A DNA stretch of 64,000 nt. Source: Escherichia coli. Its GTDB lineage: Bacteria > Pseudomonadota > Gammaproteobacteria > Enterobacterales > Enterobacteriaceae. Under the pieces are notes generated by a model. The model made no database searches. It had not been told where the DNA came from and worked only from the letters and a program-made list of their open reading frames with translations. The number at the start of each line of letters is the position of its first letter. The stretch's first letter is position 1. Both the position numbers and the translations under genes were made by a program. Below, piece after piece: positions 35,825 through 37,347 of the stretch. The stretch is taken from the NCBI RefSeq assembly GCF_024700885.2, contig NZ_CP117016.1; one strand, written 5' to 3'.

Positions 35825-36025
35825 ATGGTGATACGCAAAAAGAAGTGCAGGGACTGTGGAAACGCGATTACTCATAATACTGTGTATTGCCCGTATTGTG
35901 GTTCTGTCGACCCCTTCGGCTATTACCGGAATACAGACCGTATCGTTACCATACTGCTGGCACTGATTATTGTGGTCCTGCTGACTACTGTCAGCGTCAG
36001 TGTGTATATACTGTGTAGCTGGTGA
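35825..36025 (+). CDS. Small zinc-ribbon membrane protein (66 aa)
   Basis: GAGGAG RBS 6 nt upstream; CRDCG…CPYCG zinc ribbon followed by one hydrophobic helix (IVTILLALIIVVLLTTVSVSVYIL). Confidence 0.4.
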   Translation: MVIRKKKCRDCGNAITHNTVYCPYCGSVDPFGYYRNTDRIVTILLALIIVVLLTTVSVSVYILCSW

Positions 36026-37347
36026 GATAACGGTTCATGTATCCCCTGAGCTGACAGTGTACCGGTTATATTAAGCGTAACCGACAGGTTCTCCTTCATA
36101 CCATATTAAATTTTTCCAGGTATTGCCGCTGCCTTATTTCGTCCCATACAGGAAAACTCGTCTGGGTTTCTGACAAATACGTGAAACTCACAGCCCCTCA
36201 ATATCAACCACACGCTGTAAGCCGGTAATACCTGAAAATCAGCCCATTACCGCCCACGCCTCCGGCACCATTCCCTTTTGATTTCGAATTCTTTGTTGTC
36301 GCTATACCGCTTAACGTTCCCGGTATTATCCTGGTTCCCGACAACAGGAACATATTCAGCTTTTAATAACCTGAGAAGAGCCAATAAGAATCACAAAGCG
36401 GATAACACCTGGTGCGATGCAGTTGTGATTACCGAACGCTCAGATGACATATTTCCAGACTGAAGCGGGAACACGATCGTAAAGCTTGTTCATTGTCAGT
36501 TCTGCCAGCCAGTGATCAACCACAGAGTTGAAGGCTTCCAGTTCCGCAGAGGTAAGTTTATAACGCGTGTGGGAAATCACTTTTTCCAGCGTCTCCCGGG
36601 ATGAACAACGACGGAACTGCTTTGGTTTTAACTTCCATTAGCCTCTCATCACTTTATGCTGCAATTAACGTGATACTGTCAGCATACCGCCAGACTGGCA
36701 TTCTGGTACCCACCCCAAACTCATTACTCCCGAGCCACCACTTAACCGGTCTCTCAGACTGTCACTCACCAGGTCGGATATGTTTACCGCTCAGACGGAT
36801 GCTTAATGCACTCTGTTCACGTACATTGCAGATACGTTTTATATACGCGGGTTATACGCCAGCTATCAGGGATAGCGCAGTCTGTTGCTACTGCGTTCTC
36901 ATCATGCCCACTGATCACACTCACCGTGTTTATTTCACATATATGAACTCATGTATTTGATCTCATGTGTTTGATCTCTCTTATATATTTATAATACCAA
37001 TCAGACAGTCTTATCCCATCGGTGATACCTGTCGCCTGCCCACCGGACACGGTCTGCCCCATCGTAACCGCTCCGTAAATAACTCTGCAATTATCAGAAC
37101 GCCAGTTTTCCCCTCTTCCTCACGAAAATCATCCCTTCTTTATCGCGCGCGCGTGCGGAAGCATCGTTTCGTAACAACCACCCGGCATACCGGTACGGCT
37201 CAGCCACCGTAACCTCCCCGTTTATCTCCTGGCGGTCACATTCCCGATTATTTTTTACGTTTCTCCCCGGTTGTTATGCCGGTGAAGGTGGTGCGTTGTT
37301 TTCATGACCACACCGGCTGGTTTAACAACATCCGGAGGAACATTCTC

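Follow-up and report, generated by a model that had tools for sequence, protein, structure and literature searches.

Organization of the gap upstream of alpA

The window, a 64,000-nt stretch of Escherichia coli DNA, contains a gap at 35626-37347 that is flanked by a YagK/YfjJ-type gene on the minus strand and by an alpA-family gene. The former (35056-35625, minus strand; "inovirus Gp2 family") matched Pfam PF11726 with an E-value of 1e-47. The latter encodes a helix-turn-helix protein (37348-37554, plus strand), scored 34.5 bits against Pfam Phage_AlpA (cut-off, 21 bits) and is likewise annotated by PGAP. Two genes lie in the gap: a small plus-strand gene for a zinc-ribbon protein, divergent from the YagK/YfjJ-type gene and here called znr, and a convergent minus-strand copy of hha that lacks its start.

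Megablast of the gap against 5426 complete E. coli genomes returned a 100% identical record and more than 1000 near-full-length matches. In the RefSeq annotation of the identical record, the gene order is inovirus Gp2 family protein, zinc-ribbon domain-containing protein, Hha/YmoA family nucleoid-associated regulatory protein, helix-turn-helix regulator (alpA), a 200-aa hypothetical protein, YfjI, GTPase and agn43. The preliminary description had presented the two genes of the gap as orphans, a view that does not hold: znr is annotated in RefSeq and widespread, and the minus-strand gene belongs to the Hha/YmoA family.

The wider annotation describes a CP4-44-type island adjoining cobUST, with IrmA, an antirestriction gene and cbeA/cbtA farther along. 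Strain 042 has a matching arrangement at its cobUST-adjoining site. The position of the YagK/YfjJ gene was kept in all related loci examined bar one (L019), which has no znr copy and carries a 199-aa gene without a Pfam match in the YagK/YfjJ place. The island around znr is full of IS elements and pseudogenes.

Sequence and predicted structure of the zinc-ribbon protein

The znr coding sequence (35825-36025, plus strand) is an ATG ORF for a 66-aa protein, annotated by PGAP in the identical record as WP_001347328.1. Its ATG is preceded at a distance of 5 nt by the Shine-Dalgarno sequence GAGGAGG (35813-35819, plus strand), which is kept in a divergent allele (L002). The zinc-ribbon segment, defined by alignment and model, spans residues 5-27 (35837-35905, plus strand) and holds two CxxC knuckles approximately 10 residues apart (C8/C11 and C22/C25), the pattern of a zinc ribbon. 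In a clean alignment (A3), C8, C22 and C25 were invariant and C11 was at least 90% conserved; frameshifted variants in a second alignment (A1) lose part of the four-cysteine pattern.

The C-terminal transmembrane anchor, assigned from hydropathy and the modelled helix, comprises residues 40-66 (35942-36022, plus strand). Hydrophobicity over 19 residues peaks at residues 40-58 (mean Kyte-Doolittle value, 2.99), and positive charge is gathered N-terminally, residues 1-39 having 7 K/R against 3 D/E. An AlphaFold2 model based on a 23-sequence alignment had a mean pLDDT of 79 and contained a β hairpin at residues 5-16 (strands at 5-7 and 14-16) and a helix at residues 33-65 (pLDDT 85-94). Because just 2-3 residues lie beyond this helix, the protein appears to be tail-anchored, with its zinc ribbon predicted to face the cytoplasm. 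The ORF, the four cysteines, hydropathy and the model thus agree with the preliminary description of a zinc-ribbon protein with one transmembrane helix, and the strong ribosome-binding site noted there is the GAGGAGG motif.

RefSeq already labels the product "zinc-ribbon domain-containing protein". Scores against the Pfam zinc-ribbon models that we compared (Zn_Ribbon_1, PF13240; Zn_ribbon_3, PF13248; Zn_ribbon_15, PF17032; DZR, PF12773) were all below the gathering thresholds, the best being 22.0, 20.1, 20.4 and 18.9 bits vs 28.9, 27, 25 and 27.3. In NCBIfam, nothing exceeded the cut-offs, and matches in PHROGs were to families of unknown function alone (best E = 1.7e-5). PADLOC was run on znr, the hha copy and three of their neighbours and matched none of them. 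When the model was compared with the PDB by Foldseek, generic zinc knuckles alone were retrieved (E > 0.5), and a literature search by peptide string, locus tags and protein accession returned nothing. Close relatives of at least 55% identity occur in E. coli, Shigella, Salmonella and Klebsiella and are confined to islands of Enterobacteriaceae. Farther afield are small proteins of approximately 30% identity and the same layout, some of them within conjugative transfer clusters; these may be mere generic zinc ribbons.

Distribution of znr and selection on its two halves

The preliminary description had proposed a conservation search for both peptides. For the minus-strand gene, the Hha family was matched in Pfam and NCBIfam and the allele of the window recurs in 396 of the 5426 complete genomes. 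For znr, the 5' half of the gene was found in 3159 of the 5426 genomes (58%) as 5152 copies, nearly all chromosomal, and the exact protein occurs on at least 1000 contigs. Single genomes carry up to five copies, with no visible antidote gene. In seven of seven distinct carrier loci, znr lies between the YagK/YfjJ-like gene and hha/alpA.

We compared five distinct znr alleles drawn from loci sharing this synteny. The ORF was open in all five despite dS values of 0.3-1.2. Over codons 1-40, the ribbon half, dN/dS was 0.16-0.35, or about 0.2. Over the membrane half, dN/dS was 0.4-2.3, the alleles exchanging L, I, V, T and A while remaining hydrophobic throughout. Many variants in the databases are frameshifted, so selection on the family is not uniform; since these variants include the copy of strain 042 at the locus equivalent to that of the window (EC042_2238), which is frameshifted at its C-terminus, individual copies evidently decay. 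Overall, znr is very probably a genuine protein-coding gene.

Non-coding parts of the gap

The spacer between the convergent znr and hha (36026-36439) was divided by its identity profile between alleles into a hypervariable part, 36026-36250, and a conserved part, 36250-36439. No terminator-like site was found in this spacer. On the other side of the hha remnant, the non-coding stretch that separates it from the divergent alpA (36639-37347) is 85-98% identical between alleles and includes an AT-rich patch at approximately 36900-37000, where GC drops to 0.40.

Candidate RNA and promoter elements were considered and rejected. A structured RNA or riboswitch in the gap was not supported by Rfam (E up to 1), the one match being at chance level and outside the gap, and the convergent spacer folded with z-scores of -0.8 and -1.2. 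Similarly, a putative antisense promoter within znr (35994-35966) was dismissed: two such sites were found vs 3.1 expected, and this one falls where the gene is not conserved.

A 22-nt inverted repeat, 82% complementary, pairs codons 31-37 of znr with 36215-36236 and brackets the hypervariable segment; its core is kept in most alleles, with one co-varying base. Inversion of the bracketed segment is unsupported, as a synthetic query for the inverted junction matched none of the 5426 genomes at 80% coverage or more.

The minus-strand gene is a broken copy of hha

The minus strand at 36440-36637 holds a frame of 65 codons and a stop that is homologous to Hha/YmoA (Pfam PF05321; NCBIfam NF008191) and lacks an ATG. 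Its 46-codon GTG ORF scored 65.9 bits against PF05321 (cut-off, 25 bits; E = 3.8e-18; profile positions 16-57), and the whole 65-codon frame scored 90.6 bits against NF008191, "hemolysin expression modulator Hha" (cut-off, 90 bits; profile positions 15-71). PDB structures of Hha/YmoA were matched at E-values of 7e-21 to 8e-20 (7e-21 for 1jw2 and 4icg). The frame is 93% identical to an intact 70-aa island Hha (MEVKTKEDWLYQFRRC...) and 55% identical to K-12 Hha over residues 14-71. The product had been suspected of being a small membrane peptide, and this family membership marks it instead as a relative of the H-NS partners.

Alignment with an intact locus in identical synteny located the lesion straight after codon 6. 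Specifically, pairwise and multiple DNA alignments place a 14-nt deletion at 36619-36620 (minus strand; AAGACTGGCTGTAT lost), which removes codons 7-11 of the 70-aa protein and leaves a net frame offset of one base. From the original ATG (36638-36636), the stub ORF (36558-36638, minus strand) reads MEVKTK, six codons that match the intact gene (P0005), and then 20 out-of-frame codons and a TAA, so that this frame runs for 26 codons and ends at 36558. Thus, the split between a 65-codon frame and an ATG in another frame stands as first described, and the "1-nt frame change" to which it had been attributed is in fact the 14-nt deletion. The same junction occurs in 396 of the 5426 complete genomes, so it is not a sequencing artefact. 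Evidence for EDWLYQF as the ancestral segment comes from the intact 70-aa island Hha, core Hha and a Salmonella homologue with QEWLYQL that is encoded on contigs beside conjugation-type genes.

Upstream, the Hha frame is closed by a TAA at 36640-36638 that overlaps the ATG. Its in-frame start candidates are GTG 36580 and CTG 36589 alone, with a poorly spaced Shine-Dalgarno sequence. PGAP chose the CTG, and RefSeq accordingly calls a 49-aa remnant (36440-36589, minus strand; WP_052318419.1). What remains falls short of a complete Hha, which has approximately 67-72 aa, includes helix 1 and starts in frame after a ribosome-binding site. In addition, the alignments revealed a TGG codon at 36509-36511 (minus strand), which places Trp where the DHRLAEL motif has Arg (Hha R50). 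This Arg is invariant in Hha, YmoA and all full-length island paralogues that we read. The Asp and His of the segment are present beside the Trp; the Asp corresponds to Hha D48, which the literature describes as required for H-NS binding. Finally, no tomB-like gene or remnant was found: tblastn of K-12 TomB against the window yielded E-values of 0.6 or above and nothing in 36640-37350.

Alleles of the island hha gene

We counted hha alleles using queries spanning the deletion junction. Because neither flank reached the 28-nt length of a megablast word, a match demanded an exact word across the junction. The undeleted junction of the 70-aa form was present in 693 of 5426 genomes (733 copies), the deletion junction of the window type in 396 (418 copies), and the deletion together with a nearby A-to-G change in 1264 (1406 copies). 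In the one locus of the last class that was read (L010), the upstream TAA is GAA and the Hha frame continues to a TTG, giving a predicted 74-aa protein that PGAP names hha. The N-terminal extension of this form had no match to the Hha profile, and no ribosome-binding site was seen. In two rare alleles (P0018 and P0023), the frame is restored by a second loss of 1 nt. The island Hha forms observed are the 70-aa protein, the 14-nt-deleted form, the 74-aa form (stop lost, start at a TTG farther upstream) and the 58-aa product of hha3.

Over the 240 nt compared, the allele of the window is identical to a remnant at the corresponding locus of strain 042, where WP_052318419.1 is annotated as well. 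A similar allele occurs in Salmonella. Prieto et al. (2016) described hha2 (EC042_4516) and hha3 (EC042_4796) of strain 042 as horizontally acquired paralogues with an enrichment among pathogenic E. coli, and reported a modulating effect of all three hha genes on the agn43 copy EC042_2242 (PMC4864382). This agn43 copy sits on the island of strain 042 that is equivalent to that of the window. Bernabeu et al. (2019) linked the hha2/hha3 paralogues to the flu-yeeR-irmA cluster and described H-NS/Hha repression of island genes (PMC6480617). Gene order at the hha3 locus of strain 042 matches that of the window, and Hha3 itself is a 58-aa protein with a non-homologous N-terminus in place of the ancestral one. 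The best matches of the published primers to the hha copy of the window had 3 and 2 mismatches for the hha2 pair and 5 and 2 for the hha3 pair. Given these mismatches and the unrelated N-terminus of Hha3, we regard the copy as a third, broken allele type of the known hha2/hha3 kind.

Proposed function and regulation of znr

Bernabeu et al. (2019; PMC6480617) list EC042_2238 and EC042_4795 as paralogue group 48, "hypothetical protein". In strain 042, the place of these genes is between the Gp2-like gene and hha3 (EC042_4796), where RefSeq annotates the zinc-ribbon gene. From this gene order, as opposed to the sequence of the original annotation, we infer that both are copies of znr. In strain 042, EC042_2238 was up 5.6-fold when hha was null and 4.2-fold when hns was mutated (PMC6480617, Table 1), which we read as an indirect sign of znr expression.

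We consider it highly likely that znr is translated and its product membrane-bound, and likely, with somewhat less assurance, that the gene is silenced by H-NS/Hha. Under the model that we favour, znr would be transcribed divergently from the YagK/YfjJ rep-like gene and kept silent under H-NS/Hha like the rest of the island. Its product would be a tail-anchored inner-membrane protein bearing an N-terminal four-cysteine zinc ribbon on the cytoplasmic side. Speculatively, the ribbon might tether a cytoplasmic partner, either protein or nucleic acid, at the membrane. Such a protein would be an island accessory or regulatory factor as opposed to a pore-forming toxin.

The preliminary description had raised the idea that small membrane peptides beside phage regulators are often toxins or exclusion factors. 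Here, the idea could apply to the zinc-ribbon protein alone, and it fared poorly, with no PADLOC match, PHROG matches solely to families of unknown function, an antisense site at chance level and no TomB. A role as a small membrane toxin, or in superinfection or entry exclusion, would suit a small tail-anchored protein that is encoded on a mobile element, silenced by H-NS/Hha and hypervariable between alleles in its C-terminal half and the segment downstream. It would also suit the presence of distant look-alikes inside conjugative transfer clusters, although these are perhaps generic zinc ribbons. However, the conserved and selected part of znr is the cytoplasmic zinc ribbon, not the membrane segment; up to five copies per genome are tolerated without a visible antidote gene; and no conserved antisense promoter or RNA was found. 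We therefore judge a toxin or exclusion function to be unlikely.

Equally doubtful is a bolder combination in which znr acts for CP4-type islands as a functional membrane factor under H-NS/Hha silencing and, separately, the recurrent N-terminal remodelling of island Hha reflects selection for truncated variants. If true, the cytoplasmic ribbon could bring a specific partner to the membrane, such as the Gp2-like replication protein, AlpA or a protein of an incoming element, and znr could control island activation or exclude competing elements. The truncated island Hha variants would then have been selected for altered modulation of H-NS rather than arising by simple decay.

State of the hha remnant

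The intact 70-aa island form is expected to be a co-repressor that binds the N-terminal domain of H-NS and strengthens the silencing of acquired DNA, including agn43. In the allele of the window, the deletion after codon 6 parts the ATG and ribosome-binding site from the Hha frame. Because the start is severed, a TAA closes the frame and the invariant Arg is replaced by Trp, the copy is most likely a non-functional remnant, that is, a pseudogene, and we hold this with considerable confidence. If so, silencing of the island would fall to core hha, to ydgT and to any further hha paralogues that the genome carries.

It is improbable, by comparison, that the remnant is functional and modulates H-NS as a truncated Hha or as the product of a +1 slip. 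The truncated protein would comprise residues equivalent to Hha 24-72, initiated at the internal GTG 36580 or CTG 36589. In the other variant, ribosomes starting at the ATG would, in rare cases, slip by +1 into the Hha frame at the A5 run GGAAAAAG (approximately 36582-36589), on which the P-site tRNA-Lys is predicted to re-pair perfectly in the +1 frame. The Hha frame is indeed intact for 65 codons and has acquired no further stop, and the allele is common, being found in 396 genomes. Moreover, the 58-aa hha3 of strain 042 has just the C-terminal part in common with it, but a change in agn43 expression has been reported when hha3 is deleted, and the rare alleles P0018 and P0023 restore the frame by losing 1 nt at or before the A-run. 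Against this, neither the GTG nor the CTG has a good Shine-Dalgarno sequence, GGGAG being 12 nt upstream, and a run of five A's is too short to slip efficiently. Of the four-helix fold, helix 1 and a portion of helix 2 would be missing, the NCBIfam match starting at profile position 15, and the invariant Arg is Trp. The frame-restored alleles are themselves rare, with 5-10 cluster members vs hundreds for the broken form.

Overall interpretation

That znr is a chance or decaying ORF without function is very improbable and already disfavoured by the conservation evidence: it would account for the lack of a match to a characterised family, the sub-threshold Pfam scores, the many frameshifted database variants and the abundance of IS elements and pseudogenes in the island, but not for a frame that has remained open while dS reached about 1, a dN/dS of about 0.2 over the ribbon half, a conserved perfect Shine-Dalgarno sequence, invariant cysteines, and a fixed synteny in a gene present in 58% of genomes.

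We thus favour a reading in which the 1.3-kb gap would be the control region of a CP4-44-type integrative island that houses two unrelated accessory genes. The explanation as a whole, comprising a genuine, H-NS/Hha-silenced znr and a degenerate island copy of hha, is in our view quite probable. The preliminary observation is real but ordinary, with one common, annotated and uncharacterised small protein and one pseudogenised member of a well-studied regulator family, and nothing that we found points to a new mechanism. Among small membrane proteins of E. coli accessory islands that have not been studied, znr is one of the most widespread. Decayed hha remnants, for their part, bear on the counting of hha2/hha3 as virulence markers and on the construction of "hha-null" strains: strain 042 bears a remnant of the window type at the island of agn43 EC042_2242, and this remnant is absent from the published hha listing.

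Comparison with known systems

The type I toxin-antitoxin systems, whose small membrane toxins are accompanied by a conserved overlapping or adjacent antisense RNA, differ from znr in this feature. Similar in layout to znr are generic zinc-ribbon domains and small metagenomic proteins that combine a zinc ribbon with a transmembrane segment. These share the CxxC-(10)-CxxC pair followed by a single transmembrane helix, and a DPFG-like motif after the second knuckle is common to znr and distant small proteins such as P0248, P0252, P0260 and P0282. In contrast to the generic zinc-ribbon families, znr has sub-threshold Pfam scores, no characterised member and no fold match below E = 0.5.

The island itself resembles the cryptic prophage CP4-44 of E. 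coli K-12 (yeeP-isrC-flu-yeeR-yeeS-yeeT-cbeA-cbtA), with which it shares the cobU-side chromosomal site and the right-hand gene set. The K-12 element differs in having lost the left-hand module, and no copy of znr or hha was detectable in K-12 CP4-44 or in those parts of CP4-57 and CP4-6 that we checked.

With core Hha, YmoA and Cnu (YdgT), the H-NS co-regulators (PDB 1jw2, 4icg, 2k5s and 2jqt), the hha copy shares the VPxSVWK motif and a further motif. Unlike them, it has no usable start and no helix 1, is horizontally acquired and has no tomB upstream. This last feature also sets it apart from the TomB-Hha toxin-antitoxin pair, in which tomB lies immediately upstream of hha.

The nearest counterparts of the hha copy are the island paralogues hha2 and hha3. 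The copy of the window differs from them in its 14-nt deletion, closed upstream frame and Arg-to-Trp replacement. It lies at the cobU/CP4-44 locus, where the identical remnant of strain 042 was left uncounted among the hha paralogues of that strain (PMC4864382, PMC6480617). Otherwise, hha2/hha3 and the copy of the window belong to the same family and, as read at the hha3 locus of strain 042, occupy the same slot between the zinc-ribbon gene and alpA, upstream of the GTPase-agn43-yeeR-irmA cluster near a YagK/YfjJ-like gene.

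Variation within and downstream of znr

The znr gene (35825-36025, plus strand) is not uniformly conserved. Alignment of alleles revealed a hypervariable segment at 35920-36250, comprising the 3' half of the gene, which encodes the membrane portion of Znr, and the next ~200 nt. Between alleles, identity in this segment drops to <50%, with indels, and both of its flanks are 85-100% identical. Mosaic recombination and diversifying selection are both possible sources of this hypervariability.

An ATTACCG(G) core is present at znr codons 33-35 (35915-35936). An inverted copy occurs ~300 nt downstream, at 36215-36238, and is kept in most alleles, while a third copy, in direct orientation, lies shortly past it at 36247-36253. 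The inverted arms contain one co-varying base: in the related locus carrying a divergent znr allele (L002), G is replaced by A in both. Further, two database variants of znr, P0192 and P0202, have apparent deletions that join the 5' end of the gene to sequence past the third copy. A query representing the inverted junction matched none of 5426 complete E. coli genomes at a coverage of at least 80%.

Outside these alleles, small proteins combining a zinc ribbon with a transmembrane helix and sharing ~30% identity with Znr are encoded at two other loci (L027, 4001-4219; L028, 4001-4237). Both genes occur within conjugative transfer clusters, on the opposite strand. TraH and TraG_N genes flank one of them, and DotM_C lies close to the other. 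These proteins may be homologues of Znr or generic look-alikes.

Island context

Two paralogous DUF7828 + Zn_ribbon_11 genes and a pseudogene of an IS110-family transposase occupy 32923-33333, 33501-34487 and 34497-34895. The pseudogene splits the gene pair, whose members are adjacent in other loci. Further left are remnants of ISL3, IS3 and IS4 together with truncated metabolic genes. Based on these remnants, the truncated genes and the IS110-family pseudogene, the left arm of the island is decaying. To the right, agn43 (42323-45597) is present as two ORFs, 42323-44827 and 44845-45597, and the identical RefSeq record annotates it as a frameshifted gene. The island's right end has an insertion of P2-like phage tail genes that truncates cbtA. 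The window also contains yersiniabactin (HPI) genes, three tRNA-Asn genes and the P2-like phage tail genes (1-13036, 19346-23653 and ~52000-64000).

In the region separating alpA from the divergently oriented hha remnant, the patch of lowest GC content (0.40) contains a 14-bp unit, CTCATGTrTTTGAT, tandemly repeated ~2.2 times (36949-36979). The repeat includes two GATC (Dam) sites, one of which is missing from L002, and could be a regulator site or an H-NS/Dam-sensitive site.

The hha remnant and related alleles

The 14-nt deletion that breaks the hha frame at 36440-36637 (minus strand) is shared by the commonest island allele of hha, which is present in 1406 copies in E. coli genomes. In one example (L010, 3030-3254), GAA replaces the upstream TAA, and the frame thus runs on to a TTG, yielding a 74-aa predicted product that PGAP names hha. 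The initial ~15 residues of this form derive from the old 5' leader and the shifted frame.

An identical remnant (WP_052318419.1) occurs at the cobU/CP4-44 locus of E. coli 042 (L018, 44380-44529), adjoining agn43 (EC042_2242). Strain 042 therefore has an hha-derived locus in addition to hha, ydgT, hha2 and hha3, those listed in the literature. The znr copy at this locus has a C-terminal frameshift and encodes 64 aa.

The published Hha3 of strain 042 (EC042_4796; L024, 3133-3309) starts at a GTG codon and comprises 58 aa. The ~12 N-terminal residues are unrelated to Hha; homology is confined to the C-terminal ~46 residues, a portion equal in extent to the remnant in the window.
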